From Phoronis australis (Eukaryota > Animalia > Phoronida), in contig NMRA01000096.1 of NCBI GenBank assembly GCA_002633005.1, positions 372,001-436,000 of the forward strand: a DNA stretch of 64,000 nt, read 5' to 3'. Each line of letters opens with the position of its first letter. Positions within the stretch are counted from its first letter, which is position 1. Shown here in pieces: positions 22,481 through 47,700 of this stretch. The notes beneath the pieces were generated by a model. The model saw only the letters and a list, made by a program, of their open reading frames with translations. It had not been told where the DNA came from and did not search any database. The translations under genes and the position numbers were made by a program.

Positions 22481-25400
22481 TTATGAATTAGCTTCCGATT
22501 CAGAGCTTGACGATGAGTCTGACGATGTCAACTCGTCTGTTGACGACTTCTTTCTCTGTGTTTTCCTCTTCACATCATCGGGCTAGAAAATTGAACAAAC
22601 ATATAACATGTATATGGTAACTTCACCTCACAATATACACTGTACACCACACGTCTGATTATGTACTACAAATGTGTATCAAGTTATTCAATATTACACA
22701 GAGCACTTCTTGACCACGGGTCTGTTTCGTGAAAAGTGACTTAGGGCTGTTCCAGCAAAATCTGTGTGGGAGGGGGGGGAAGGCAACTGAAATAAAAATT
22801 TATGGGTGGTTGCGTTTGATTTAAATTCATAATGGCTGGTGGTCGTTCTTCAAAAAAATCAAAATTTACAGGTCGTTGTTGTTTCATTGGGCCATAAATG
22901 TTTGATGGTGGGTAATTTTAGTAAATTTTATAAACAATCCTCACAGAATCAAAACCTGAAACAAAAATGCAACTTGCAAAAAGCTCCGACTTTTTCACTC
23001 CCTCCGATCTCCTCATCGGCATGCCCATAACACCATTTAACCACAGGTGCTTGAATTTTTCGATGGCTAATAACCAGATATAAGAAACATATGTTTTCTT
23101 AGTAATGAATGACGTTAGTGGTGATGGAGGAACAGATAAACTCAAGCGCCTGTGCAGTCGACCACAAGAACAAAAAAAAATTACAGGTGGTTGCATTTCA
23201 AACTTATAAAAAATTACGGGTGGTAGGCTGAAGAAATAAATGAAAAATATGGGTGGTGGGTGCGAAAAAAAGGTGCCTTCCCCCCCGTCCCATACAGATT
23301 TTACTGGAACAGCCCTTATAACTTCAGACACAAATTTGGTCTAAAGCTCCCAATTCACAAATACTGAATAAAGGTTAAGCCATACAACTAGTAGAATATC
23401 ATAATCATACATTTTAGTTAATTATCTTGTCTTAGTTTCTTTATCTTCTATTTATCATATTTTATATTTTATCTCTTTCATTGGTCTTTCCGTGTTAATT
23501 TCTTACTCTTTGCTTATTATTTAAATATTGTCTTTCATTTTGTAATTCTGTTAGTTTGTCTTACTGTCTGTATGTTTTTACCGAGGGCCTCCATGGAAAG
23601 CAGTGTGAACTGATGGGGCCACCTTCTTTGTAAATATTACATTAATAAATAATAACTAAATAAATAAAAAACCTGGTAAGTAATTAAAACAAATTATCTC
23701 AGTAACTAGAAGTAAATGGGTATATTTTCAGAGGCTTTGTATTTTTGTTAAAGTGGGAATTAATTATTTTTCAGAAATAGCTCTGTGGACCGTAAGACCA
23801 ATTTGAATTTCTGTCTTAAGTTTTAGGTCGCTTTTCATAAAACCCCAGAACCCCGAATGCTGCTATCTAAGCACAAGTCCTCAACACCAAAATCACTACC
23901 GTCAAACATAGGTACAACGGACCCTGTTTAGAATGTTAGCGATTTTAGCAAAATGTATTATGGTACCATTCACAATAGTTAACAACATATTTTACGATTA
24001 CATCAAAACAACATTCAAAATTTCCAGTCGCTAACGAAAATCCACCAAGCTTATGATGAACAATGGCCGACTTGACGGCCTAGTCTGAAGAATGTACTCA
24101 GGCCACCAGCAAATAATACACTATCGCAGTTTGCCTGACAACTGTTAGTATTGTTTGATTTCTAAAGACATCTCGGAAGGTTGAGAAAATGTGAACAAAT
24201 TAGCCTGAATTAAGTCAAAACATTGTACAAAAGCTGCGTGCCGCAAACAAGATTAAGAAGGCCTATTTTTTGGCCCACAACCATTTTTACGATAGTTCAC
24301 TATGGAACAAAAAATGACGCAGGAGGACGAAGGCGGTCAGCAGAAGTAAAAATGCCAAAAAAGCATGCATGTGACAATAAAGCAGGTCAGGCTAGTAAAG
24401 CTGGTCAAAGTTGGTAATGCTCTAAGTCAACAGACAGCTGTTTTGAACATGCCACATCAAGGCAAATGTCAGGACATGAAATGTGCCATATGAAGGAATG
24501 CTCGCGAAGACCTACAGCAATAGGGTTTAGGATTGGAGTCGATAAAACACACAAATGAACCAAAAAAGAATACCCTAATTACAACGAATCATTGCAATGT
24601 ACAGATTTTGAAAGTCTCCTGATATGCGTTGTAACAAAGTTGGACTGTACATCATGTTGTTACCTTCCACAATAGTGGTTCACCATTTTCCTCCAACAGC
24701 TGGGTGAGGTCGCGGACTGCCTTAGGCTGAAGATCCCCAACGGATACACCATCACCCTGGGCTTGGGTCAAGGTCGACTTGGCAAGGTCAAGGTCTTTCC
24801 TGTCACCTGAACAAAGCATAACAAACTTGCATAAGTCTGATTCAATTAGAAAGAGATTTTATGAAAGAAAGGCGAAATTTGGCATACATATAACCAGCAT
24901 GAACAGGGAACAGCCATTGGCTACATACATGCTTGTAGTAACCAATCAAAGCACAACGATGAAGTTAGATATTGTAATTGCACTATTGGACCGTGTATTC
25001 CACATTACAGACAAAATACGCCATATTGGATCATGTACTTACACTGACCACCAATTCGATAACTGAAAGTCCACCATTGGACAATGAACTTACAGTAACA
25101 GCCAGTAAGATAATGGTGCAGGCACTATTGGACAAGGTACTCAGAGCAACATCCAATTAGACAACTGCACGTGCACTATTGGACAACAAATTTTCAATAA
25201 CAGCCAATAATATTATGATATGATCACTATTGGACAATGTACTTACAATGCCACCCAATCACATAACTGTATGTGAAGGCCAACGATTCAGGGTTGTGAC
25301 CACGAAGGGTGTCCAAAAGTCGGCTCAACATGTCCATCTAATGCAGAGAATAAATTCAGAGGTAAGAATTATCAAATACGAGTATTTCAATTTTAAGTGC

Positions 25401-28400
25401 TGTCCAATCAATTACTTGCATTTCTCCAAGACTCCTTAACCAACAGAGTGAAATCCTCTCTCAGTTCAAGCTAAATGTTCGCTGAAACCAACTGAGAACC
25501 ACAACAGTGTGGGATGATTTTAATCCAACCATTTATTTCCTACAACATTTTCGTCACATGGCACATTCACCACGAAGAAAACAACACTGGATCTGTGTGC
25601 AGTAATCCTATTAATCACCAGGTCTGAGAGATGAATGTAGTTCACGGTTGACATGAAATATGAAAAAAGAAATTGCAAACATGCAAGTTTAAATAAATAT
25701 TGGGTACTTATCTTCACTTCTGGAACTTGGTTTGGTCAAATTAGTTTGAAACACAACATATAGCGATGATGTGGGCATGAAAAATGACAAATATTTTTAA
25801 GAAAGAGTTTTGTGTCGGAAATGATCCTCCATGAATCACTGAACCGTGCCCAGTAAGTATCGTGATGTGGTGCTGGGGAGTAACACTGCATGGTGCGGGT
25901 TATGTGAGCCCCCATGGTACGTCATTAGTGCACAGGTCACCTATTTGCATAATTTTTTGTTTTCACATTTGTAAGTTGTCAGTCAACTGCACTTTGTTTA
26001 GCGTAGATGGTGTTCAAATAGCACAGTGGTCTAGTTCCTGCTAGCACAGTTAGGAGCATGCAAATACATCTTTAAACAGGACTCACTAAATGTATAAAAA
26101 CAATGCTTGTGAAAGACAAACACTACGGTAACTATACAATTAAATGATGAAATATTTTTGAAAAAAATACCAGATTTTCCAATTTACTTTTCGTGTTTAA
26201 TTACAGCCAATAAAAAATAAAGAACATTCTGTCATGCATTTTTTTGTGGTACCCCCTTGCTTTTCAACAATGCAACATTCTCTGCTCAATTTGTATGGAT
26301 TATCAAAACAGATGTTTTGACCTCTGACCTTTGTGTTCGCATGTTTTGCACTAGCACACTCAACAACAGGACACAGTGATACATGAACAGCAAGGTTGTT
26401 GTTGTTCACTGAAGCTACATGCATTATTAATTTTCACATTTTAGGACCCTATATAGACCACTGTGCTGTTGTCCCAATACATGCCCTAAGGCACACTGTC
26501 AAAAATCCACAGTGTCCTCGAAAACTACCATACCACGTTCCCCGGTCTATACCTCACCTGATTTTTTTGCTTTGCTTGAATGCATACGGGCGCCACTCTC
26601 AGATAAGTCACCAGACCTGGAAACTTCTGTCAAATAATAAAAATAAAATTCCTTTTAAGTCTAAAACTCGCTGTGAATGATCATGCGTTGAATTACCAAA
26701 CTGGCTGAACAATCAACTAGGGTTACCCCAGGTGGTGTACACTTTAGAGACACCTTGAATATGGTACACACCACCTCGGGCAAAACGACCCGTATTTCGC
26801 TACCGGAACAACAAAAAGCAGGCCTAATTTCCCCCTCATGACAGATGAGTGCAACCGTGTCGTGTTGACAGGGCTTTAAAACAGGGCCTGGAATGACCTG
26901 TGACAAAAAAGAGAAAAAGTTTCCAGGTGATATATCCTTCTACAAATAAATAGGCTTATGTGATAGAAATATTTTTGTGTTGTAAAATTTAACTGCAACA
27001 AACGTCGTTTTGCATGAATAAAGCCAAAATAACGATAAAAAAGAGATGAGAAATGAAGCTACTGGAAATCAAATAAGAGTCAGTCGAGACCAAAAAAGAA
27101 GAAATCTTTTTAAAAGATTCCAAACCCTGTTACTACAACAGTACCTCCAGCAACTGATCAGCCTTATCATTGTCATCCTGCAAGGTGTAGTAGGTCCACA
27201 GATTGTTGATGGTACGCAGTTTGCCAGTCTCCTCAGTGTGTCTTAAGATCAGTGACTCCACTGCAATGAGAAACGACCAACATAGGACTACACTGGACTA
27301 AGTGCTGCATATCTTGTGTGTGGTATTCTCACGACATGGGGAAGGGGAGAGGCTAATTAATGTTGGAAACAGAACAGCATAAACCTTAAGCATCAAGAGT
27401 AAACAACCACGCTTCACACGACTTAAACAAATTACTGCAGTGCCACACCTTTAGGCCCATGGGCCTATATCCAAAATAATGCCTTTTTGCGCAGCCTTTT
27501 ACCCACATGATTTGCCTAATGGCATGTGCATTGCAGTTCTGCACAGCAATACGGCAGCACATACCTCCTGAAAAGTTTGCCTACACAACTGCCAAGTGAG
27601 ACTTGGTAGTTGTGTAGGCAAACGGTGCAAAAAGATGCACACTGAATTTATCTTTAGTATATAGACCAATCATGGTTGGGAGAGTAAACAGTTATTGATA
27701 GGCAAAAATTGGTAACACCATATTGCGCATTGTCAGATCCACAGGTTTGTCAGTGGCAAGCAGTTTATATTTATCAAAAACACGGTATACTAATTTTCAG
27801 GATTTTTGAAAAAGCACAATACAAAACTCAAATACTACCCATGTTACAGTTAAATTTCCAATACAACTAAAAAGTATCCTTAACTAGACTTTAGTCTGCA
27901 TACCAAAATATTTTTCCCATTCATAAAATACATATGTCAAATCATATCAAACTAAATATTTCAAGGAGGCAGTGGGATAAGTGCCCACTTCCTTTACTCA
28001 ACGTCGTGGGTTCGAGTCCCACTGGGGCACACTGCTAGACCCTGGAGTCGGGTTTATAGCACCTCTGCTAGGTTTCAAAGCATACAGATGGTTCCTGGTG
28101 ATCAGTGCAATGAGTCTACCAGAGTAGCTTGTGCATGTCTGGTAGAATGTGTACCACACACCCTGCAATTATTTTTTTATTAAAAGATACCAAACCCCGT
28201 TTTGGCCTATTAACAGATATCAAAAACGACGTACCTATCCAATTATCTGAAACGAAATGCTCTGTGACCCCGACAACCCTCAAAAATTTTGGAGGACATT
28301 TTGAAAACTCTTTTCCAAGTCTGCTAAATGGGTAAACGTGACCTACGCTTTTAACAAATTACACTGGGGGGAAAGACCACCCACCAAGAACTATGATATC

Positions 28401-31400
28401 CAATCTCTGACACAGGGAGTGCGAGTTTTTAGTTGATTCCTGCTTTTATCGTTCAAGAATGACACCAATAGGAGACAGAATGAAGAATGACTTAAATCGT
28501 CAAAACAGGGTTTAGTGAGCGATCAGTTTGACACAAAATGATGCTCCTTTGTCTTAAAACATTTCCTCCATCCACTGTCACCACAAATTTATGAGATGCA
28601 GGTTTGAAGCTCGACCTACTTGTTGGTGCCAAGTCAGGACATTTGTTCATTAATAATTCCAGGTTGGGACCGGTGACATACATTTGCACATCTGCAGGAT
28701 TGCTGGACAGGAACTCCAGGAACTCTCCAGCACGATCACTGAAAGAGGTAATTAAAAAGGTAATAGCCATGTCCTGAAATACAACAGTGACATCTTAAGG
28801 GGAAAGCAACCGTTTTTGATGTTACCGTCACTAACTACAGATCTTTGGTTATCTTGGAAACATATTTTTCTGAGTTGATTACTGTTTCCTTGCGAGTATT
28901 TACTACCCATGGAACAGTAGAAAGCGACGTGAACGCCTCCACAAATGGCCTTCACCTTGGCTCTGCATTCACATACATTCACAGCAAATACGAATAACTG
29001 ACGAGTCGGACATTGTGTTTGTTCAACAGCAGTGAAAGCAGAACCAAGTAGTGGGCCTCTTGCCTGGCCATTTATGTCGCAAACTGTTGCACGCGTAGTA
29101 ATTACACGCCAGAGAAACAATAAGTGACATGGAAAAATGTCATTCTAAGATAACCAAGGATCTGTTTTTTACTAAAAGTAACAACAAACAGTTGCTTTCC
29201 TCTTTAAATTCTGCAGTGTTTAGCCACAATGCCAAACACCAGCCAGACACCAATCCTACATCACATGTTGATAACTGTTACCATTCTACATAACGCCAAC
29301 GAAGTTTTGCTGTGGTATACCGACACAAAGACGATGGCATATCTGGACAAACATCCATGGATTACAATACTCCACTCCTTTTTGTCAAATAGTATTCAAA
29401 AGCACCTGACAATTTGATTGCTGAATTTACAATTTAACACATAAGTTGCATCCTATCTAGCCAATAAGTAACCTTTGATTAAAATATATGACTTTCAAAT
29501 CCAATTCAACTGATTAAAGTTTTACTTAAAAACTCACCGTCTATTTGCAAAAGCATTCTGCCAAGAAGCACAAGGAAAATAGCATGTCACACCAGATTTA
29601 AGTAATGTGCAATATTTGTAAAAATATTTACAGCCTCCTGAAATTACCAAAAAATGCCCAGCCAAAATTCGGTCAACTTCACACTCATTTCTTGTACCTA
29701 CCCAAAAAAGTTGATAAAACTTAACGACAATGATGGGACATTGTCATTTCACTGGAGTGTCAAAATCCACTTCAAACATTGTTGCAATCTATTGTGAACT
29801 TTCCAGTACAGGAGATATGTGTTGTTGTTCACCGTCTCTAGGCATTTTGAGAAGGGTAGAAAATCTCCAGTTTGGGATAGTGAAAAATTAATTATATCGC
29901 TCGAAGTTAGAACGTATCAAATTTTAGAAATAGACAATACCGGCCGTCCCAAATTGAAGAAATACAACAAGTGACAAACCATCGGTCTCCTCAATGTTGC
30001 TCACTATGAGGCATGAAAAAGTCGCTATGGCAACTATTTTTAATGATTTCACAATCTGCCAAGTTTATTTCAGACTGCTGATACACAAAAGCAGTGTCCG
30101 AAATTTGAGAAACACGTCAAAATTGACCGTGTCTCAATCTTCAGAATCACGATAATTCAATTTCTGGCTTGAATTTCCATATCCCAAATTTTAGAGAACT
30201 TTTACGGTAAATTCAATGACTCAGGCTCAGCACAAATAGAGAGCTGAAAATTTAATCCACTCCTTCAACTGAAAGTAAGTTGAGAACATAAATGAGTGAA
30301 CTAGCAGTAGTTCGTTAATTTGTCCGATCCTCGTCACGAGCTGTACGCTCAACTAACTCTCACTAGAGGTAGCCACTGCATCTAGCAGCGCTTCAGCTGC
30401 GCCAAACCTTAGATGTTAAACAGCGTTGGTTAGACACACCTTTTGAAAACTATTGTGGGCAGTGACAGCTGACAGTACCATGCATTTAAATACCTGTTCA
30501 CATGAGCTCTAAACAATGCATTGAGAAGGACATAGGGTGAAGACTCCAGATCATTCTTCAATAGCTGAAGACTGTCAACATCTCCGTGGTCAGCCAGGCT
30601 GTGGCAGAGTCGGCGAAAGTCTACAGGGTGGACAGAAATCAAGTTGCAGGTCTATGTTTACACAAACACCAATTACAACACATTCAATGGACGTAGACCA
30701 AGTCAACTAAATCATGGGTGCAGTGACACTGGATATTTGATAATTTTCGTAACTGCATCATCACTGCTGTTTGAAAACTTGTGCCACACACCTGTAGCAC
30801 TGGTATTTCTTCTTGAAGACCCATTTCACACACCAATCATTTTAAACAGTATGTTCTTGCAAGGTAGCTCAAAAGGACAAAGCCCACCTCTTGGCAGACT
30901 TTATTCACAAATTGATTAAACCGCATTGGGTTCAAGAGTTACAAATTGGTAGGATTTGTTCAAATAGTGATATTTTGTAATTTCCACTAATAATTAACAT
31001 CACAGAAACATACAACTGCCACTTTAATAAAACAATTAGGTCTGTGATTCGTCACTAGCAGGAAACGTGTGATTGGCTAACACGAGTCAGCTGACGTGTG
31101 TATAACAGCAGGAGTACTCACCATTGACCCTGGTCTTTTCAAACAGAAACTTGCCAACTGAACACACAAAACTGGGCGAAGGTTTCTGATCACCAGCCTT
31201 GTCACTACAACAGAGTCAAATGGTAGTTATACTCAAATCTTGGTAACGATCGGATATAATGTGCCAATTTTCTCCACTGAATTGACCTATCCCCAGGAAT
31301 TTGAATGATGGCTTAACTGACCAATCAGAACGCAGCATTCTTGACACACCTTCGTTTCCAAGCCACCATTTTACCCGACCAAACAACACGTAGCCGGGTA

Positions 31401-34400
31401 AAACTTACTGTTTGTTGGTAGACATTGTGCAAGGGGCGGAGCTTGCGATAGATCAATCACAAACATCTAAATGGTTCTCAAAACATGGGCACATTTTATT
31501 CGACTATTGCCCAAATCTTAACTATCCTCTGGTGACGTGTCTGTGTGCGCGAGAGAGCACGTTGTAACAAGACAAATACGCTATGATCTGTTCCGTTTTA
31601 TCAATCTGGCAAATCATTCACTTTGTATTTTGAACATTTTCAGGCCAGCCTCATACAAACACTTAATTCAAGCAAGAAAAAGAGTGCATACAAAGGCATT
31701 GCTACGTTATGTAGATGCAAGTATCCGGTTTCATGAAACAGTCCCTAAATGTTAGGGATGACCTTAAGTCTTAGGGACGTCCCTAAAGTTTAGGGACTGT
31801 TGCATGAAAAGTTCCCAGGTAGTTTAGGCATTACATAGGGACTCAACTTTTGAGTTACCGATCATTAGTCTTTAAGTCGAATCCCTAGCAATAAAATGGC
31901 TGATCAAGCTCATATTGCTGTTGAAAAAAGAATTTTCTATGACAGAACCCGCTCAAGATGTTTACAGACAGTGAGCTAAACGAAAGATTTAGATTTTCAA
32001 GGGCTGTTTTTTTCATGATAGTTAGAGAGCTTGAAGAGAAGCTGGAGTTGTCGAACAGGTTATCACCCATTGTACAGGTTAGTAGTTCCATCATAAACTG
32101 AATTTATCAATTACTAGTGCCATGACTTACCCTACGTCTCACTTAATTCCCCAAGTAGAAGACTTAAACAACACATTGGGAAGTGCGGCGACTCCTACCG
32201 GAGATTCTAGTATTCTCACTAGTTCGTCGCCACAACTTATTGTTTTCTAATTTACATTAGTGTGAGTGGCCACAATCGATTGTCTGCTCTCTCAACAGCA
32301 GTAGAAAACTCGAATTCTCAGATAATGCTTATTGACTGTGCACTCTACTTGAACAATCATTCAAAAGGTGGAACAGAGAACATAAATGTGACAGGTATTC
32401 ACTCGTTGAAAATAATTTTCTTCATGTTAAGCGACCTTAGCCATGGCAATAATCGGGATTGCTCGGCTTTGAGAACTTACTTCGGATTTAGGGCACTCCC
32501 AATAAGGACTGAGTATAGGACCTCTTCATGCAACAGTCCATAAACAAAATCCTTATAGGGTCTTCCCTAACTAGTTTGGGAACTTGGTTAAGTCCCTAAT
32601 TAGGGACTGTTTCATGCAACTGGGCAAAGAAGCTCACAAAAACACAAGATCACGCTAGCCTTCGCAAGATATCGCCTCATATCAAAAGCGAAGCACACGA
32701 TCATACCAACTTTTACGACAAATATCTTGGGTCTATAAAACAAAGCATTGTTCGGAGAATTTGACGAAAATGTTAAGATTTTAAAACACAAATTAGTTAC
32801 CGTATTTGCCCTAATAACCACCCAGGGCACTTAGAAAACTTCGTTTCAGGGTGGCTCTTTCTATAACCCAAGGTGGTTGAATTCCGGTCTCCGAAACGGG
32901 TAAAATCGGAAACTAAGATTCATCGTATTTACACTCTGTGATGTATCAGCAACCTATGACAGACTTTCCATAAAATTGTGGTGCATCGCTATCAAACTTT
33001 GTTGTTAAATTACGATAATTTTACTGAAAATTGTGCTGCCCCAGGGTGAAAACTCCCCAACTGGCTGCCTCGCAATCGTCAATATGGCAACTTGAATGCT
33101 TGAATAAAAATAGTTTTGACTCGAGCAAATTACCTGTCAGAAATCTTCCTAAAGTTTTCCATATAACGTCCCTAAGATTTTTAAGTTCACGTGGAGTCGG
33201 GATTCAACCGGCAGGTTAAGTCCTATCTGTGCTAGATCATGCCATTTGTGATCGTACGCCTTCCCAGCAACACGAGAAAAATCTCTGGACGAAAACACAC
33301 ACACATGTTGTGGGTCACGTGACGTTTGTTTCGAAGTTCGTCTGCGTGTGTGAGTAAGCGAGCACGTGCGTGTCACTAGAATTCATTTGCCAGAGTACTG
33401 GAACGCAATCTAACAAGCTACATGTGCATTGTATCTAAAGAAATTAGCAGAAGCATTAGAGCAATTTCATTCAGCACTTGCCGGTCTCATCTGCTGAAAA
33501 ACGTTCGCCAATTGTCTTGGAAAGGCCCATAATCGCCGTGAGTCTGGATGCGTACTTGACTGCCTGACAGTTATTTTTCGGTTGAGGGGTGTGTAATCAT
33601 TCCCTGTCAGTGGTCATTTTATCGGATATTTGGCTTTAAAAACACCAATTATGATTAATCAAACAATACCTTTTAAAAATAACGCAAAAATTTTTATGGT
33701 GTTAGAAACTGTCGGAAATTTGTGCCAATTATTTATTTCTTGCCGATGCTACTTTGCTACCCGTTTCATGAATGGATAATTCCCGGCTAATGTCTTTGAT
33801 GACAGGTACATGTGGTCAATTTTTTTTTATTAATCTTCGATTTGCGGTTTTCACAAGCACAAAGAAAATTTAGATTCCTGTTGAGGGTGGGAAATAGGCA
33901 ATACAATCCCGTAGACAAGTATGCTGCATCTGTTGAGAAAGGCCACTGAGACCATAGTGGGACACGTTCCTCGCAAGATAAAAAAACTTGTGTTCTTTTT
34001 GTGGCACGGCGGAAGTTTGAAGAGCACAGTCACGGCTACTGACACCAACATAGCAGCGAAACTCGTGGAGTGCAAACTTTGCGGACAATGATTTTTTCCG
34101 GAAGAACTGTCGGATATTATTAATAAATTGAAGACGTTACTGTAGAATTTTAGGACTGTAGGTAAGGCATTTTTCCCACATACACGTTCATGGGCTGGGC
34201 GCTTATTTTAGGAAAGTCTGAAAACGCGAGGGGGGCGCTTATAGGGGCATGGGCGGTTACTCGGGCGAATACAGTATGTGTAATGAATAACTTGTTTTGA
34301 CTTGTTGTAATAACAACAAGTTTTGAATTTTGCCCGAACAAGTTTGGCTTACTTGTGTTGAGTTTGAAAACTTGTGCAACAAGACAGAAATTTTGAGAGA

Positions 34401-37400
34401 CCATAAGCCAAACTTAGGGCAATCAACGTAATGGCTTCAGGACATAGTGTGGACATGCACTTTAGACCACACATGAAATTTGTATTGCCCATCGAGTGTT
34501 AGTTTTCTATTGCGGAGAACACCGAAAAAACTGAACAACTTCCAGGATAAAAATTAATATTCAGTGCATTGCTTAATAGTATACTTACAGTAGTTGTAAG
34601 AGCTTGTTCAAGTCACCACTAACAATCCCTTTGAACAACTCTTGTTCTTCGCTGTTTAAACCAGACACGTCTAATGATGTCTCCTCAGGAATCGCCTGAA
34701 CAAATGACTGAAACAGGGACTTAGCCATTAACTGATGATTTTGAACAACTCTGACACTGGAGTGGGACCCACACTTTACAGAGACTCTAAAGAATGAAAA
34801 TGTTTAATACATTAGTCACTAATCAAGATTGCGTAATACTACATCAAATTTATAACTTTCAGACATTTCAATTAAATGGATTAATAGCGATATTATATGT
34901 GCCGGGATCTGTTTTGCAGACCCTACAAGTTATGTGAGGTGCTTGTTTACCTGAGAGGGAACTGTGAAAGGAACAGGCTGATCTAGTCGTTTGAGAACGT
35001 TCGCCAGGAAACGCAGAGTTCGACCATTCGGCTGAATGTCTTCCTCCTCATACATTTCAAGCACACCTAATGCCTTCTGGTGATCACCCACGTTCCCTGA
35101 GGATTCATTTTGCAAATTGTCATATACTGCCTACTCGAATATGAAAAACGATAAAATTATTAAAACAGCCTTAATCTTACAAGGAGCTTATTGAAACGAT
35201 GCCTTCATGATTTCGGGTGAAAACCAATCATACATGGTTATCGCTAGAGGTGGAGACGGGGCTGTTTTGAGGATCTCCTTCGTGTGAAAGAATTTGTAAA
35301 CTGTGCTCAAGCAAAGAAGTTAAGGACAGAAATCATTTGGGTTTTCAAATGTGATTTTTTTTCCTGAATTAAGGTCATCCTATCTGATTATGATAATATA
35401 AAAAATACTCTGAATTTCATTCGCCACAGTTTATAACGAAAAAACGTTTTATTGTATCATTAATCTTGGTATTCCGCTGCCATTTTTTCAAGTCCAATAG
35501 TAAGCCCATTACACGACAGGAGGTGCCAATTTTTATATTCAGGTGTATTTAAGCAATGTTCCAACGATTGTATACAGTACACCTATATCACTACAAAAAT
35601 AGACACAGCAAAAATCAACTATTCCTCATTGCAACACCAGCTCCTGATTTAGCCTCTAGATGGCAGCGTTCTCTAATCTTTGCTCCTTAATCACGATCAG
35701 CACCAGCTTCAGTGAGAAAAAGCAATTTTCCAGTGAATTGTGGGTAAACTGTATTGCTAATCTCGAGAAGAACAGTTTTAATGCAAACTCCTGAAACTGA
35801 ACACATGACCCTAGTCTGACCTTTAGCGCTTCAACCAATGGAAAGAATGTATTCCTGTTCTATCCTTCCAACAAACTAAATTTTAGAAGAACATGTTAGG
35901 TGTTTATTAAAATGTGAATATCAACTACATTAAAGTTCGAGACTCGAGTTTGGCAAACAGGGTATCTAGAATTCAAATTGAACAGAATTCCTGGATGTTA
36001 TACAAAGAAACAAAATCCTGATCTGGGTTTTTGCATTATCTAACAGTAATCGTGGATCGGATTTTTCCAGTGCCCAGTTGCATGAAACAGTTTGATTCCT
36101 ACAGTATGTTAAGAGCATAGTGCAGAACCCACTAGTGTCATAAGTTGTCAACTTTAATGAACTGTTAGACTCAATTTTATTTTTTATGTTATTAGAAAAA
36201 GTCTTTAGTAAAGGAAGAACTCTTAATAAAAATGAAATGATAGAAAAATATAACATCTGTGTGTAAAGAAAGACATATATATGCAAAAGATTTAGGGGTC
36301 TTAGTCGAAACCATGTTTAGTACTGTTTCATGCAAACGACCAATGGAACCCTGATAAACTAATAATCTGTGATTATTGTTGAAGAATGCAAGGACAAATG
36401 GCTTCGGGAATTCTTTTTTGCACAAATCAAAGTTCGTGATTCGATTCGATGTATCAAATACAAATAATTTGGTTAAAAAACTTAAATTTCAGCTGTTTTA
36501 TTTGTCAAACTTAAGACCAACAACTTTAAAAACAAAAGAACAAGAAAGTGAGATAGTTGTCTTATTTATCAATTTCTAATACAAAACTGAGAAACTAGCA
36601 CAAAACCCAAACCATACCATAAGCTTTGATGAGCTGTAATAACATCTCATCCCTGTCAATGGCAAACAAGTGCTTAGTCTCAGTGACCAGCGTTTCAAGC
36701 TCCTTAATCTGAAAACAGGAAAAAAAAGTTCTTTTGAAATGACATGTCAGTCGACATACAATAGCTTTCAAATAGTCTACGAATTCTGTAAGTAAAAGAG
36801 CTACTCTATGACAAAGCAATAGATAAATTAAGTCAATTTTTGTCATCAATCTTTGTAACTTTTAACTCACCCACTAACTCCCTTCCATCATCTTTGTTAG
36901 TGCATTTTACTGCCTATCTTTTCAAAGTAAATATAGTTTGCTTATTGTTTCTACTTTATTATTAAAACACAAGGACATACTGACTGATTCATGATCAGGA
37001 CATATGCCAAACATAAACTACCGTGATTAACTGGTCCTATTTACAAATCTGCAGTTTTGCTAAAAACGTGTGAAACTGAAACACAGTGATTTTGAATAAA
37101 AACAAAAAATATGGAATTTCATTACAATTGACAGATGAAAACATCTCTCGAAGAGATATATTAATTATTTTAATTAGCCTATAAACTTGAGTAGACAGAT
37201 TTAGTGAATTGTTCCAACATTCAATCAAGCTATTAAGTTTCATATTTACCAGATAAAAAATTAAAAGTTGTTACCTTATTTTCTTTTATCATTCTGTCAC
37301 AGGCTACCACAAGTCTTGGCATAATAGCTCTTAGGCCTGGTGTCTGCAATGGATATCAAGGTAGTAAGCTGGTTTGACAATAGAGGTCACCAAGGTAAGA

Positions 37401-40400
37401 CAGGTCACCAATCCACATGACGTCACAACCACTTCCCACTGCAGCCATGAAAGATGTCTCGATAGAGGATACAGAGGTAAAAACCTTAACAGACTGCACA
37501 GAAAGTAAGTTATTTCAGTGGCATTTACACTTAGAACGTAGGATAAATCCTTAGTGTTTAATAGAAATCACTAACAATAGTCCTCATCCAAATTTTCATT
37601 CAAAAGGGCACACTACAACACATTGGCTGCAGGCCAAAGGGATTTCCCATTGAGTAACATGCATTTATATCGGAGTGTACAAAATGAATCAAAGAAATTG
37701 TAGATCATTAAAAAGGTACAATGATATTGTTCAGGTCAGCTACACATACACAAGAACAGAAAATGACTAGAGGCCCTTCAAATCCAAAATAGTTCAACTG
37801 TGACGGTGTCATACTAGGCTGAACTGACCACACAGCATGGTGTGATTGGGTTTTCCATTAAAATCCCTCATGACACCATGCAGTCTTTGTTGGATAGTTT
37901 TGCTCATAGCACAAGTTTGATCCCATTCAAACATGGAACACATTAACTATACTACCCGAAGATAACCCTCATGACACTGCTCCTAAACAGACCAGGAAAA
38001 GCAAAAAATCCCAGGACTTCTGATGGCAGTGAGATATAGTGCCCAAAAAACAGATTTGATTGCCCGACACCATAAAATGACTTACAATCATTGCCACAAC
38101 AGCAAATGATAGCTGAGGTGAGACGATTCTTAGAATATCACTATTAACCGATCACATCATAAAAACATTAATACTTTCCTATTTATGACATAGCATTTTC
38201 ATATTAAGTCAATGTTAAATGATTTACAGCACAAGAAGGAGCAGAACAGATGGCTGGCCCAGGAATTGGAGACAACAACATTCAACACCTACAAGCCAAT
38301 GCCGTCCAGATAGGAGGAGCCAATCAGAACATGATCTTTCCAGCTGCCCAGAATGTGACCGTAAATCAGGAGCCCTCAGGTAAGGAACACATAGGTCGCA
38401 ATTATAACCTTTGCATATACCCGCCTCACACAAATGTTCTAAAAATCTCCCGTTTGTTATTAGAGCTTTGAAAAATATCTGCAACATCAGTCCTACGAGA
38501 GTGCAGCAACCGTATCAGGCAGGTTTGCCTTACAACAATAAAATGTTTAAGGATGGTAGAACACAACATTTTGTCAGTTGTACTAAGACTCATTATTTTT
38601 GAATTGGGTGGTGATATACTCGATCGCTAACAATACTGCTCAATACAAGATATCTCGCTTAATATTGCCATTCTCGGTATCGTAACAAATGGAATGGCTC
38701 ATCCAGTTGACAAGGTATGCACAGGTTGATTTGTCACAGGCGCATAATTTTAAGGGTCCGGCATTAATTGTCAGTCTGCACTACTAACAAACAGTGAGGT
38801 CTTTGCAAACTCAGAAGTCACTTCTCATCCAAGTACGGAACAAGTTGAAACCAATTTTAGATTAGTAAGTGGTCTCCTTGGACACAACTCATGTTTATAG
38901 CTGCTTTAAGAACATGTCATTCTTGAACAGGATGAAGTTATGATTGGAATTTTCAAGGTTCATGTGCCAACAATCCACTAGGTACACATGCCAATGCAGT
39001 ATACACGTAGTGTTACCTTATGTAGGCATACACAAATGATGCATCTATACACAAAACGTACCGAGAGTGGCGTACATGAAGTAATGTCCCGTGAGACATT
39101 ATTCCGCGTACGTATTGACTGAGACTGAATGAAAAGTTTGATGATTGAACCAACTAAAGACGTCGAGTTGACATTGACCTACATTTTGAACTTTCCATGT
39201 CAGAGGTCACTGCTGAAGTAGTGTGGGAGGTTAATACGAAAAACATTATTACATGGCCATATTACACTCGACAGATTCAACGCGTATGGAATAAAGTATA
39301 ACATTAACCCCTTTTGGCCCATTATAGAAGAAAAGGTAACATTCATTTACACGGTCCTATATTTTCATCACCACTAAATAACTAGCACCAAACTGGTTCT
39401 TAAAATACGGGTGCCTTGTGACTATTGCCTTTTTGATGCCAGAAATAAATTGCTCAGAACTGAGAGGAACTAAAAGATTGGGATATTTGTATACAAACAT
39501 CATTCTACAACCACCCTCAGTAGTTACAAAATGGTATTTATTGCCGTAATCCACTGTTTGATTGTCAGCTCCAAATACAACGCCCAGAGACAGTTCTAAT
39601 CGACTATGGCGACGACTTATGCAACGACCTTGCATGCAATTTTAGTAGGCTTAGGACTGCTCTTGAGTGACAAATTACCCCAAGAAGGTGACTTAAATAT
39701 GGCGACTTAACAAAAACCTTTTACATGTAACTGAATGGACTTGTAAAATGGACCAATGAAGTGACGATTTGCTGGCAGTAATTGTATGACTTCTCGATTA
39801 ATTCGTAAGATGAAATGAACAGTTATCTCGTACAAAATGATGACATATCCAGACAGAACAACTTACACAATGACTGGTAAACCGAGGTCACTTCTAGCTT
39901 TCCCTAATATTTAAATTTTAATCTAATTTTCAGGATCATCCGTCAAAGATTTGTTGGCAAGAATGCTACTCATTGAGGTAGGATGCTTTTATAAGGAACG
40001 CGAACCACAGACATGCATGCATTAAACCATGATGAAAGAACCGTTGAAAAGAAACACAACTGACAAACTGCTCATATTCAAATTACAGCCTATAGTAAAC
40101 ACTGTTTGGATGTTTTCACATTCTTTTGCAGTGAATTCAAACATGAACTATAAAGCCTTCGATTTTGTTGCAGCAGGAACAGTCATAGATGTACAACCAT
40201 TGAAGTATTTTTACATTACCCTCACTAACAAGAGCATTGCTAAGCACTGATATGAGCCTACTGTATGCATTGAAAATGACAAAAGATGTAAAGTGTGCTT
40301 TTTTCAAACAAGACAGAACTGCTCAAAATGGGCAAGTGTTGTTCTCTTTAGGATAAAATCTTTTCTACCAAATTTCAAGACAATTGTTCATCAAACTTCA

Positions 40401-43400
40401 TACTTAAATTAAGGCAAAGGCGAAAAAAATAATAAAACAGTAGTCGTATCCGTCCAAAAGTCATGTTCTTGTTAACAGGAACAAACCTACAAAATTCCAT
40501 GATGATTCTTAAAGAATTTGGCAGATGTTGCCGCATGTGCAAAAATAAAACTGCCACTAGGGGCAGAGGTCTAGAGATAAACCTGTCAAATTTCAATTTG
40601 CGTGTAAAGAACAAGCAACATTATGTCACTGTGAACCTTTTAGAAGAAGCAACAACAGCAAGACCGAGAGGTCGAAACTCTCAGACAAGATAACGAGGAC
40701 CTCAGCAAAAAAATGGACCAGCTAGAAAGAGAAAAAGCAGAACTCAGCCACGAATTGGTAAAGATAAAAAAAGAGAGAAGCCAAGAAATGGTACAGATAA
40801 CAAAAGAGAGAACTGAGCTAACCAGAAAGATTGCAACTCAGGCTCGACAGCTAGAAGAAGACAGTGCACAGCATGAGCATCTTGATCAGAGAATAAACGA
40901 GCTTGAGGTAAGGAACTTAAATCCTACCAAAACCATGAGAAAGGGCCGCAACACAGATACAAGAGGCAACTTGAAATTCAGTCAGAATAAACACATCTCC
41001 CTATAACTTTCAACATACAACTTGAATTGTAATTTTTTATTATAGTGACATGTGTTCAAATACATTTAAGCAATGAATATGTTACAGAACAGGAACAGCC
41101 AACCCTCCATGAAGCTTACAAGTCACTTTAGATACATGATATAAAAAAGAAAAAAAAACAAGTGTACACGCATTGCAAGAGGACTAAAAGACAGAGATTA
41201 GTGTGATCATAAATAAATATAATTTTTCTTTACTTCAAAAATATTTTTGATGAAAACTCAACTTTTTCTGATAACATTTTTTTGCATGATTGTAATTAAT
41301 TAACTTTCACAGCATTCTGCACGAAATCGTGGATATTTAATCTCAACTTGAGAGTAAGAGGTGTTTCTGGCATCTAAGAAAAACGGACACTCAAACAGAA
41401 AATGTACTTCAGTTTCGACCCGACCAGTGTGACAAAGACAGCAAATTCTATCATCAAATTCTAGAGAACGAAAACACCCAACCTCAACCAATAGCTGTAG
41501 GGTTTCGGTTCTAATTTGAGCAAGAACTGACCTACTAGACCGAGTTAAGTCTAAATGCACATAAGGATCAACTTCAAAAACGTTCTTCATCAAAACATAT
41601 TAGGTTCTTAACTTTGGTTTTGAACAACATTCAAACAACCACCTCTTACAGGCCAAATCATGCAAAATATTCTTACAGTGAGAGAGCGTAACTGAACATA
41701 AGTTATGAAAACAGTCCGAAATCCCTAATTATTCAAAAATGTTCATAACTTCAGAATACCAATTATTAGTACAAGTAGTGTATTCCCACCAAAATATTCG
41801 GTATGTTAGTCTATCATCCTCGAAATTAATAATACGATTCCACATTCTCAAAAGCTCAATTTTCCGCCTAACACTGGGGAATTCCCACACCATGTCACTC
41901 ATAACAGCATGATTAGGAGCGAATTTGTGAACGCCCAAGAAAAATTACGGAGCTCTATTCTGAATGACATCACAATCCTGTAAACTAGAGCCGCCCCAGA
42001 CCCCTACACAATAATCTCTAACAGGCACAACACATGCATTGAATAATGTAGTGAATGTTCTGTACCTCATTTTTTTATCCTTTTTAAATTTATAGATTAA
42101 AGTGCTCAAAGCTCTTCCGGCAGATTCGGACAAAGTTTTAGCAGTTTCAGAAAACTTCAAATGTTCATTTAAAATTATTCCTAAATATTTATAAATGGGT
42201 ACATATTTTAGGTCTAGTCGACCCAACTGAAATTTATATAGACTACGAGAGACATGCTTGGATCTGAAGAGAATAATATTAGTTTTTTCCAGATTGACAA
42301 TTTAGAGCACCATTTGTCAGTTATATTCAATAAACCCTGTAAATTTTCTTCGCTCTCGGCAAGAACCACTATATCATCCACATAAAACAAAGACGAAACA
42401 TTATCAGCACTCATAGGAATTCCTAAATTTGACTGTTTTAAGTCCGTTGCCAAATCATTTATGAATAATGCAAAAAGAGTAAGTGATAAAACATCTCCTT
42501 GTTTGACCCCACAAGGTGTATAAACCAGTCCGTAAAGGTATTGTTAATCTTAACACACGATTGAGTTTCGGCATAGATATTTTTAACCGATTCATAAAAC
42601 TTTCCAACTATCTTCAGATCCAGCATTTTAAAAAGTAAAATATTTCTATCTACCCAATCAAAAGCTTTTTGCATATCAATAAAAGTCGTAAATGTAGATT
42701 GTTTGTTATTCAAGCGGTTACGTATAACCGAGGACAAAACAAAACCGTGATCGACACATGCTCTGTCACATCAAAAGCCATTTTGCTCATCAACAAGGAG
42801 CCCGTTTTCCTCAGCGTACTCAACCAGTCTATTGTTCAATACACTACTATACAACTTGTACACGTTGGACAACAAGCTGGTACCTCTATATCTCAGCGGG
42901 ACGTGAGGGTCCTTCTCTGACCCCTTTGGAAAAGGCATAATAACGGATTTAGGCCATAAACTAGGAACCATACCGTAACGAAAAACCATTTGGAACAAAT
43001 AAGTCAAAAGGTCAATAGCAATTTGTGTTCAACTGCTAAATGTGTTGGAGGGCACACTCACAAATTTCCTTGTTGTAGTCGAGCAAAATGAAAGTAGGTA
43101 AACCATGTAGTTTTTCAGCAATTATGGCCGCGCAACATTACTGCCGTCCATACAGACTTGCTCTAGAACAAGTTACTCCTGGAACGAATTGTCGCTAGGT
43201 TTAAGGGCTATGTGGACAGTATTTAAACCAATGCAACATGCCCCACTTGTGACAACTTACTCCACCTTATCAAGGTAGGACAATTTGTTCTAAGGTAACT
43301 TGCGCTACTTCTAATCACTGGGGCAAGGTGGAAGTAATTATCAGCTGCGGTTACACACAGACCAAGTCTTCTTTTGTGCGTCATATTCGCATCAGCTGTT

Positions 43401-44686
43401 TATTGTCATGCGAAGAGCGATAACTTCTGCCTTGCGCTAGTAATTGGATTTGTGTGTGTGTGTGCGCACGCTTCACTTAAAGTGGGGCAAGTAGCACTAA
43501 TGCAAGTTGTTCTGGGACAAGTCTGTGAGTGGACGGGACTATCGATGGCCGAATGCGACGTTTCTCGTTGTAGAATCAAAAGAAGTGTCTTGAAGAGAAA
43601 CTTTTCGAGCAAGGGCGCCACTTGAAGAAGTTACACACGAAGATGAAGAGGAAGAACGCGTGTTTCAGCTGTCTGCACACAACCAGTCAGGCTTGCACCT
43701 ATTGCATTAAGGCTGGACGCTGCGCCAATGCCCGCCCACTAAACTCGAACTATATGAACATGTAACACAGTACTACCGTATTCGTTCCAGTAAACGCCCA
43801 GACTTGGTTGAATGTGCATATTTACATTAACAAATCTTCCACTTTTATTGGGATACAAGCCCACTGACCCTACCCTCAATTTACACATTTGTGAACACCA
43901 GTCTCAGATAACGTTTTATTTGGCCTTTCATAAAGTTGCTGACACCAATACAACAATCTGAGCGTTTACTCAAATCGGTCATTCAATTACTCTCGTTATA
44001 AGCTCATACTCTAGATGTCAAACCTGTGACTTTCCGGTAAGTCAATACAAGTGCCCCAGGTGTTAAGGGTCAACCTTTATGTGCATGGTATTCACTATGC
44101 TATTCTTTACTTAGGGTACTGTCATTGACTGGACATATGGGAAGTGTTGCTGTGATCCTTGTTAGTTCCAAATCGTTAAGCTTAGATACATTCTTGGTTG
44201 AATAACTCTGTATCAGGGTTGACATTTTACCAGCAGTGTACTCCCTTAGTGGGCCATGAACCCCATGGGTTTCCTATCAATGCAAACTTAAAACAATGAA
44301 GCCATAACGGACTACAGGGCAACTCTTACTGACAATCTCGTACTCCAGGTTACGGAAATTTTTTTAATGGTCTCAACATTCTAATTAACCTATCAAAAAC
44401 TAGGTGGTGACAACTGAATTACATTTTTAGCAAACAATATGGCAGGAATCATCATGTTGGTTATTTTTGTACCTTCAAATTTTCCTTCGGGTGTGTTTCA
44501 TATCCACACATGTGCAATCAAAAGAACGAAAGAATTATCTCTCAAGAGACCATTAAAAATCATGACTACAGCCCAACAGGTCTCAGAAGTCGTTCGTGAT
44601 ACCCGATCAGTCGACCTCGCTGCTAATCATGGAGGTATCCCACCGCAATCCACAACAATCACTGTGACTGTGACTGTCACACGCAG

Positions 44687-44729
<43 letters not shown>

Positions 44730-47700
44730 CTCACACACGTACCTCCACGGGGGAAATTTAAGGTTACAAAAATAACCGAGGTGTTCTGGATGGGCAGAAA
44801 TGTGGAATTCGAAATTTTACTTTATCAAATTTATCGACAAAAATAGATGGAACATTCATTAAATGACAACATGGCTTGTTCTCCATAGATATGATAAACA
44901 ACAGTTGGGTATTTTGTATTACTTGTATGAAGCAATGTATTCTCTCAGCCTTTGTAGAATCACAAATGGAAATTTGTAAATTATTTATGTTCGAAATAAT
45001 TGAGAATTACTGAACTTTAACTAGTTTACACTGCCCAGCTTTTTTGATAATTGAATATGACAAGAGATTACGCTATGATTCTTTACCACCAGTAAGAAAA
45101 TTTTCTTGACCTGGCAGGACGAGAGCTCTGAACGTTGTTCAACTTTTGTGTCTTTTTTTGTTCAGGTATTTATTATCATTTATGAAACAGTACAAAAACA
45201 AACAACAAATAAGTGCATCAATTTATTCACGCATGCACACCTCAGGAGAGACTATTCTCGTATCTCGTATAATATAAAGTAAACAAACTTCTACATGGAG
45301 TTAACGTGAACAATGAAATTTTCCCATTTTGCAGAAAAGCTGTCATATAAAAAATTTTTATATACAATTAATTTTTCAGCATCAAAAAAATTGTGTGTCT
45401 TCAATGAGCTTCCGGCAAACTTTTGACACATCTCTTATGTTGTGGTCAAAAGTACTTCAAACTGATGATTTACACATTGCTTTGATTCACAAAATCTATG
45501 ACAGTGGGTGAAACGTTTCTCACCATTGAACTGTTTTAGTCTTATATGTGCATTGAGCGCCGATAAGGCAACGGCTATTGATCTGGGGCCTGTTCCAAGA
45601 AACTGACTTAAGTTCATTTTTGACTTAAGTTTAAGATTTGTCTTAAATTCCCAACTTTGAAACTTCCATGTTCGGTAAGTTAGTCAAAATTAAGACAAAA
45701 ATTATGTCACACACTTAAGCCGAACTTTAGATCTCTTTCTTGAATTGGTTTTCAGACAAATTTAACTTGTATTTTAAAATTTACTAAAATTTAAGATTTG
45801 TCTTAGCTAAGTCTGTTTTGTTGGAACGGGCCCCTGTTCTACACAATGGAGACAGTCGAATGTTTTGATTTATTTTCTGCAATGGTCAAAAACTTGCAAT
45901 AAGGCAAATTAACACTAATCCTTGTGTTATACTGTGCTTGGAATGGTGCTGAGGAGTTCAGTTTTAGGTGTTTATTAAGTGCATCCTTTGAACTTTATCC
46001 TGCTTAGTTTGATGAAAATCATTTTCGATTAACTTACGTTGTGCTCAATATAACTTTTATTTAAAAAATCTTAAGTCGCTTTAGTAATTTATTACCATCA
46101 TTCTGTGATTTTTGGTATTCCTTAAATAATTGTTGCAGGTACTACATGCTTCTTAATCACATTTCAGTTTTACAAAGCATGTCAATTAAGAAGCCTAATA
46201 AAAATTAGGCAAGTGTAATTCATGATATGCTAAGTAGTTATTGGTCTTATTATGTCACTTGCATTTTGTAGAGTAGCTTCGATTAATTTATCTTTATTGT
46301 TTGTTACTCCTTTGCTAATAAAATAATTTGTTTTGAAACATTCAAGTCTCATTTTTTAAGCAAATAAGGGTAATCATCACACAAGAAGCACTGGTAACAG
46401 ATACACCCACACACCCACACACAGACACACACACACACCGACACATTAATAGCCACCCACCCCCCCACAANNNNNTCACCCGCCCGCCCACCAACACCCG
46501 CCCGCTCGCCCGCCCCTTCCCAATAACACACTAACCACTGCATTACCTATGACCAATAGGATAAACAATACCTAAAACTGGTCTTATGTGTCTTTGTTTG
46601 GTATGTATGATAGTAACCTAAAAACATGCACCATTGTGACCTCTCGTCAACTTGAACATTTAACCGTCCTGAAGAAACTCGACGGCAAGAACAAACAGTT
46701 TCATATTAGCATTTTGAGGCCTAATCTATGCAAGTTCCTTTATTACACCGACTCTGCAACTGTTTCACACCTTAACCTAGTTCCAGTAAACCAATGTTAA
46801 CAAGTTCAGAATTTGACATTTTAACACTTAATAAGAGTTTCTGTAAATTTTTGGACGTATTCCACAGTCAAACAATGCACTTTAAGTTATACAAGAACTC
46901 AAAGTTTGCACTTTTATGGTGACTTTCAGAGGTGACAATAGAGTTTTGCTGCAAGTGCCAACTGTATCTATGGTAGAGACCAACAGATTTTAATGCTAAA
47001 TGAGATGACTCTTACTACACAAAGCCAGCAAACTCGGCAATCTCATCCGTAAATGACAACGAGCGCCATAGCTAACAAACAGTTCAGCAAACCACTTCAC
47101 ACGGTTAGCTCGGCACATTGCATTCCCCAGGCACGTATTCAACAGCTGCTGTAGTTGGTCCTACCTGCAGTATCTTCCGGGCCTGCGTCACTCTATTGGT
47201 CTCTAAGAACCCTATCATCAGACTCTGTAGGACATTCATCTCACCGTGGTGCTTGGTGGCCAGGTCCATGGCTGGAACAAAACAGCAGCAGCTGGTCATG
47301 GCTTGTGAAACAAGGTCAAGTATGGAAAACAAACAAGGCAAGATACCGAGGATTGCTTGAAGATCTGGAGCCTGTTTCATGAAAGTGTCTTAAGACTTTA
47401 GACAGAAATTTGATGTTACGCTCCCACTTCATAATTGCTGAGAAAAGGTTTAGCCAAGTTATTATGAGAGTGTTACAGTGTAGAAATAATGTATAGCCTC
47501 ACAGTATACAAAGGTTTAGCCAAGTAATTATGAGAGTGTTACAGTGTAGAAATAATGTATAGCCTCACAGTATACAAAGGTTTAGCCAAGTAATTATGAG
47601 AGTGTTACAGTGTAGAAATAATTACAGTAATAGAAATGATCTCAGTAACTAGCGGGTATGTTCTCACTGAACTTATGCTCATGAGAGAGATTTAATTTTT

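Follow-up and report, generated by a model that had tools for sequence, protein, structure and literature searches.

Introduction

Amyloid signalling through RHIMs (RIP homotypic interaction motifs) has been much studied in mammals and flies, and is known in non-insect invertebrates mainly through sequence surveys. The core of the motif is a tetrad of consensus (V/I)-Q-(V/I/L/C)-G, present in the mammalian proteins RIPK1, RIPK3, TRIF, and ZBP1 (PMC9444067). After the core come a conserved Asn, a variable residue, and an apolar residue (PMC4262963). Invertebrates hold heterogeneous RHIM proteins. Those of Branchiostoma have the tetrad in an unstructured segment of low charge, within architectures that are all said to suggest innate immunity (NACHT, death, repeat, transmembrane; Kajava et al. 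2014, PMC4262963). In Drosophila Pirk/Rudra and the herpesviral proteins M45, ICP6, ICP10, and ORF20, a RHIM-like motif serves to inhibit signalling and not to pass it on (PMC4262963, PMC13506858, PMC9444067). Pirk is the sole host-encoded RHIM-like inhibitor named in the literature cited here. Here, we analyzed a stretch of 64,000 nucleotides of the phoronid Phoronis australis (GenBank assembly GCA_002633005.1, contig NMRA01000096.1, positions 372,001 to 436,000), hereafter called the window, whose own numbering we use. A first-pass annotation, made from the letters alone, had proposed that the LRPPRC gene of this window harbors, antisense within one intron, a five-exon gene for a protein with a RHIM, a coiled coil, and a Cys finger.

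The nested protein shares with RIPK1, RIPK3, TRIF, and ZBP1 the core tetrad and the Asn that follows it, but carries neither a kinase, a death, a TIR, nor a Zalpha domain. As in Branchiostoma, the tetrad lies in a segment of low charge, unstructured as judged from composition, whereas the rest of the protein is only a coil and a short Cys tail. The motif of Pirk is C-terminal, after 18-residue repeats, and that of the nested protein is N-terminal to a 125-residue coil; no similarity in sequence was shown, and Pirk and the viral inhibitors serve here as a proposed functional model. Whole genes lying within one intron of another gene are described in animals (PMC3814207, PMC5174743), and this arrangement is not new. 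In the literature we found no description of a nested antisense gene in an LRPPRC intron, nor, judging mostly by titles and abstract openings, of a RHIM-plus-coil protein lacking an effector domain.

A coding chain beyond chance expectation

The five exons (Table 1) join into 235 codons followed by a TAA, with no internal stop, and have GT directly after exons 1-4 and AG directly before exons 2-5. Coordinates, frame, and splice sites of the proposed 235-residue reading frame were thus all reproduced. The introns have phases 1, 1, 0, 0 and lengths of 725, 1554, 666, and 2666 bp. Scored with approximate generic matrices, all four donors fall within the best 0.03-1% of the window's 7811 GT sites; the acceptors stand out less (best 1.4-26% of 7139 AG sites).

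To ask how far such a chain exceeds chance, we derived approximate splice matrices, together with a codon model, from 22 selected host exons (747 codons, no stops). A simple gene finder, unprompted, gave its highest plus-strand score in the intron, 45.3, to the chain of exons 2-5. None of 100 Markov nulls reached this value (maximum 15.2), and in a further comparison none of 150 null introns equalled the nested chain. Elsewhere the scores were 11.0 (minus strand) and 5.3-13.9 (five other plus-strand segments). The finder's chain opened within exon 2, at an ATG, and omitted exon 1. The GC content at codon positions 1/2/3 is 0.54/0.32/0.49 in the nested frame and 0.54/0.34/0.48 in the 22 host exons. 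Taken one by one, exons 2 and 4 are the sole long, open, strong-donor exons on the plus strand of the window, with thresholds fixed post hoc. Among 5000 dinucleotide shuffles of each, those both open and equally coding-like numbered 28 for exon 2 and zero for exon 4. For exons 1 and 3, and likewise for the coil half and the Cys tail of exon 5 taken separately, 13-45% of 5000 shuffles did as well; 4 of the 22 real host exons likewise score zero or below when held out of training. We conclude that the nested chain is not a product of chance.

In the flanks (19.9-37.3 kb and 47.2-63.9 kb, divided into five segments), no plus-strand coding chain rises above the null. Hence, a larger signalling domain attached nearby is unlikely. 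Two plus-strand stretches in other introns of LRPPRC may be mentioned. The one at 32022-32077 is a candidate exon, short and open, that has good splice scores and translates into a coil-like peptide; its chain is within the null range. At 25314-25361, 14 residues resemble the end of exon 4 and are followed by a GTAAG donor (tblastn, expect value (E) 0.34); this resemblance was not recovered by DNA alignment and is possibly a relic, probably chance.

The true start of the nested gene may be at 37349, 37417, or 37447. An in-frame ATG occurs at 37417, and an acceptor-like CAG at 37442-37444 stands just before ATG 37447, in which case the exon would be internal from 37445. The possible mini-exon further upstream lacked RNA support in our data and, because it adjoins the host acceptor, may be a coincidence. 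ATG 37417 sits in a perfect TGACGTCA, a sequence similar to a cAMP response element (CRE-like). At the other end, the first ATTAAA downstream of the stop is at 44552.

Table 1. Positions of the nested gene, its parts, and its host intron in the 64-kb window
Feature	Positions	Strand	Remarks
Host LRPPRC intron	37344..47164	-	Splice sites, read continuation, two PDB chain alignments
Possible extra 5' mini-exon	37349..37394	+	ATG at 37349; frame open up to a strong phase-1 donor (37394); coding score 0.2
Exon 1	37447..37504	+	aa (amino acids) 1-19, acidic; donor top 1%; own coding signal non-significant
Exon 2	38230..38379	+	Phase 1-1, aa 20-69; Asn/Gln/Gly-rich, low charge, RHIM-type tetrad
VQIG tetrad	38304..38315	+	aa 45-48; Asn at Gly+3
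Exon 3	39934..39977	+	44 bp; predicted coiled-coil start; strong splice sites; picked by gene finder
Exon 4	40644..40907	+	Predicted coiled coil (aa 85-172)
In-frame 33-bp tandem duplication (2 x 11 aa)	40746..40811	+	Heptad register shifts by 4; hendecad stutter
Broken LINE (long interspersed nuclear element) in nested intron 4	41300..43028	-	RVT_1 pieces; RNA depth there comes from other copies
Exon 5	43574..43765	+	Coil end aa 173-198, then 37-aa tail with five Cys, stop
Likely 3' untranslated region	43766..44157	+	Two plus-strand read pairs inferred within 43634-44157

The host intron

All five exons are contained in a single host intron of 9821 bp, on its opposite strand, and the gene is thus intron-nested. 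The host exon at 34951-35130 matches human LRPPRC (PDB 8any_A5) with E 2e-6 and around 44% identity over 45 residues. The exon at 47165-47269 is collinear with the same chain, in a weak match (E 0.31), and one further host exon tested against the PDB gave no LRPPRC match. Following the loose ends of RNA reads, those exiting the host exon at 37343 resume in the exon at 47165, so that 37344-47164 is a true intron. The host junction 36708/37275 was found in 9, 4, and 0 reads of the RNA runs X5, X6, and X7. Both the antisense nesting in LRPPRC and the LINE that the first-pass annotation had placed in the last intron (about 2.7 kb) were confirmed, the latter by broken reverse-transcriptase pieces on the minus strand of intron 4 (RVT_1, E 2.5e-12).

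A long predicted coiled coil and a Cys-containing tail

Residues 73-198 show a hydrophobic period of 3.52 residues, equalled in none of 1000 shuffles. In exon 4 alone the period is 3.54 (equalled in 2 of 1000 residue shuffles), and in exon 5 alone the heptad period is non-significant (p 0.12). A single heptad register spans the junction of exons 4 and 5, with the coil running 26 residues into exon 5, which upholds the earlier proposal that the coiled coil continues across the last intron. The sole shift of this register is explained by the tandem duplication in exon 4.

Past the coil, the first five Cys of the tail are spaced x2, x7, x2, x5, a spacing seen in 0.03% of tail shuffles (post hoc). 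The MYND finger, a domain that can follow a coiled coil, has its first five ligands spaced in this way; its last three ligands are absent from the tail. A MYND-type zinc finger is recognized by eight Cys/His ligands and a profile, and here there are five Cys, no Pfam family, and no PDB match. A model of exon 5 predicted from the single sequence, at low confidence (mean predicted local distance difference test (pLDDT) 57.6), has a helix at residues 2-26 and no finger. The codon score of the tail is negative, which may partly reflect the Cys-poor training set, and the other reading frames of exon 5 matched no Pfam family. What remains of the earlier label "Cys finger" is thus a spacing, with no profile, fold, or codon support, and the tail is probably a recent, non-essential end.

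The RHIM-like motif of exon 2

The VQIG at aa 45-48 satisfies the published RHIM core tetrad and is also consistent with the tetrad given in PMC12119088. The six-frame translation of the window contains five strict tetrads, and only this one has an Asn at Gly+3. In shuffles, tetrad and Asn occur together in 0.08% (whole protein) or 0.3% (exon 2) of cases and the bare tetrad in 1.3% (whole protein), all probabilities being computed post hoc. Exon 2 has 8% charged residues and 43% Asn, Gln, or Gly, with no helical period, a description based on composition only. Its aa 32-65 (34 residues) include 1 charged residue, 1 Pro, and 12 Asn or Gln. Hence, by composition, the motif has the putatively unstructured, largely uncharged flanks of a RHIM. 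The predicted complex of four copies of the exon-2 segment scored 0.02. Fifteen residues before the Gly of the tetrad, IGDNNI (38265-38282 (+), aa 32-37) resembles the second half of a RHIM, such that exon 2 may carry one and a half RHIM-type repeats. Pfam scans of exons 1, 2, 4, and 5 revealed no kinase, death-fold, TIR, Zalpha, or NACHT domain, in line with the absence of kinase, death, TIR, and Zalpha domains noted in the first pass.

Relatives, a second copy of exon 1, and alleles

Homologues were searched exon by exon, with exons 2, 4, and 5 as queries. Word-index protein searches gave no relative among 5 candidates for exon 5 and 6 for exon 2; a control with a host LRPPRC exon was equally blank (0 of 19 candidates), and these blanks therefore carry little weight. 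HMMER with exon 4 against 1.84 billion representatives (E up to 0.001) retrieved four matches, all rejected as unrelated repeat or generic coil proteins, one of them (P0006) judged by Pfam domains alone. Atlas searches returned one unusable match (0.77) and otherwise none. In metagenome contigs, exon 4 had no match among 238 stretches, and the 3 matches of exon 2 among 126 were discarded, being all short matches in GC-rich contigs; exon 2 had none in 8 viral contigs. Rfam gave no match, and the nested exons have no second copy within the window. We also rejected an origin as a transposon ORF1/gag, given the four introns, exons 1-2 that look single-copy in DNA runs, and no such Pfam family.

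A second copy of exon 1 was found in run X8, which consists of contigs, presumably of RNA, with spliced host exons. There, a contig of 154 bases (depth 25.6) matches 37456-37511 with 2 differences. The match breaks off 7 bases into intron 1, where the donor consensus ends; what follows is unrelated sequence that does not occur in the window. Upstream, as compared by eye over 30 letters, both ATG codons are kept in frame, 3 and 6 bases closer; the copy also retains the acceptor-like CAG near 37442-37444 and the in-frame ATG 37417. This exon-bounded likeness speaks for exon 1 being a real unit with a paralogue or a very divergent allele.

In the DNA runs X1 and X2 (80% likeness), exons 1-2 are covered only by contigs fitting two haplotypes. 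The allele comparison comprised exons 1-2 and intron 1. The intron showed 11 substitutions as well as 3 indels, whereas exon 1 had no difference and exon 2 had two. Of these two, one is silent and one is Ser/Pro, both come from a contig of depth 4, and the motif is unchanged.

Traces of transcription

The RNA runs X5-X7 are raw reads, of which 18-19% were examined per run, with a threshold of three reads for listing a junction; the strand convention was fixed by the reads on host junctions. In bins free of repeats, the plus strand has depth at two places alone: exon 2, with 280 letters in X6, and 43634-44157, with 301 letters in each of X5 and X7. By depth arithmetic this corresponds to three plus-strand read pairs, about one per location and run. 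The fine-scale depths of X6 fit two mates over 38230-38369 that start exactly at the acceptor of exon 2. Eight of the 10 X6 reads are partial, and by elimination the exon-2 pair is among them. Since the pair starts at the acceptor and its clipped end does not finish in G, it fits splicing to exon 1 and not to the upstream donor exon. The nested gene is likely to be weakly expressed. A low basal level would be in keeping with a regulator that is inducible or restricted to certain tissues.

Other features of the window

A signal-peptide-peptidase-like gene, with matches to a PA domain and to Peptidase_A22B, lies at 3350-14481 (-). The exons at 18509-19118 (+) presumably belong to an LSM7-like gene, judging by their translation; the piece tested had no Pfam match. 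Self-complementary repeats resembling miniature inverted-repeat elements are found at 28797-29204, 31729-31809, and 27575-27623, and intronic tandem repeats at 47444-47622 (66-bp unit), 10889-11056 (84 bp), 6702-6830 (38 bp), and 25024-25269 (51 bp).

Discussion

Sequence statistics give good support, and RNA weak support, to a nested antisense gene that encodes a long coiled coil; it is likely to be a real, lineage-restricted gene. For its product, the reading we favor, with a probability of about 0.35, is an effector-less RHIM decoy or tuner mounted on a coiled-coil rod, a proposal built on analogy. The 125-residue coil would form a parallel dimer or trimer and would hold two or three flexible segments (aa 32-65) side by side. 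These would stack in cross-beta fashion onto the RHIMs of receptors or kinases. Since kinase, death-fold, TIR, and NACHT domains are all missing, the protein would be unable to pass on a signal by itself and would thus cap or dilute the fibril. Capping or dilution would resemble the action of Pirk and of the viral RHIM decoys; seeding would be a less likely variant.

Several observations weigh against this proposal. At the level of the motif, the residue at Gly+5 is a polar Asn where RHIMs have an apolar one, and the Asn-x-apolar run begins two residues later. Exon 2, scanned in three cuts, hit no Pfam family, the RHIM model included, at E up to 10, and phmmer found no PDB chain at the same threshold, in searches that had no known invertebrate RHIM as positive control and whose HMMER filters discard weak matches. 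Of the RHIM claimed earlier, the core tetrad and the Asn at Gly+3 stand, in a segment of low charge; no profile matches, and the post-core pattern is imperfect. We call the motif RHIM-like, its membership in the family not being established by the sequence. The motif probabilities, as said, were calculated after the motif had been seen. Partners with a RHIM cannot be assumed in this genome: one survey reports that ambulacrarian RIPK1 lacks a RHIM (PMC11507063). On the RNA side, none of the four nested junctions that the first pass had put forward for verification reached at least three reads in X5-X7, where 18-19% of the reads were examined, and in none of four runs is there depth on exon 3 or on the 3' part of exon 4. 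If all three fragments are real, expression is around 0.13 fragments per kilobase per million reads (FPKM), and the putative spliced read is a single molecule deduced from the depth per bin, for which unequal reads could give equal sums. The X8 copy of exon 1 is unspliced, and is absent among the 4 and 5 matching contigs of X1 and X2. Finally, allelic differences amount to 2 of 208 exon bases and 11 of 725 intron bases (p 0.74), and the 4 sites that differ between the copies of the 33-bp duplication are all non-synonymous. With exon and intron rates not significantly different and these four changes non-synonymous, purifying selection is not shown.

The anatomy would be the same if a larger RHIM-coiled-coil gene had been duplicated in truncated form, the copy having lost its C-terminal effector, acquired a chance last exon, and begun, weakly expressed, to drift to a pseudogene; we rank this scenario only slightly below the decoy or tuner. 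It would account for the diverged second copy of exon 1, the Cys tail devoid of coding signal directly after repeat-derived sequence, the expression near the floor, and the lack of a synonymous excess. Nested genes are typically short young duplicates inserted into long introns (PMC5174743), and immune domains accompany the RHIM in those invertebrate proteins that have been described (PMC4262963). However, a drifting duplicate fits poorly with canonical junctions and a frame intact across a LINE-filled intron, with a coil that stays in register 26 residues into exon 5, and with a second haplotype free of disabling changes in exons 1-2; a longer parent was not found either, in searches that may lack this lineage.

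Almost as probable as the duplicate, the locus may be a real orphan gene for a coiled-coil protein with an ordinary scaffold role, in which VQIG would be a chance tetrad of an Asn/Gln-rich linker, with no amyloid role. The missing profile and structure matches and the imperfect post-core pattern speak for such a gene, as do the ease with which bare tetrads arise in whole-protein shuffles (1.3%) and their five occurrences in the six-frame window. Yet this tetrad has its downstream Asn and sits in a symmetric exon of its own, nearly free of charge and proline, whereas the remainder of the protein is charged. A chance chain or an assembly of transposon pieces is very improbable: exons 1, 3, and the Cys tail have no coding signal of their own, no junction was listed, and exon 1 was not picked by the finder, but no null intron equals the chain (0 of 100 and 0 of 150), exons 1-2 fit two haplotypes in X1 and X2, no transposon family or window copy was found, and the exons lack the RNA depth typical of repeats here.

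Returning to the decoy or tuner, one may go further and see in it the first member of a small, copy-variable invertebrate family whose coil would pre-cluster amyloid motifs to seed or cap immune fibrils; this is distinctly unlikely on present data. That such a family would be the host-encoded counterpart, outside insects, of the viral RHIM decoys is an equally speculative thought. If the motif is inert, the locus is one more nested orphan gene, a common thing. If the decoy or tuner is real, a RHIM joined to an oligomerising rod would be a simple switch for signalling fibrils.

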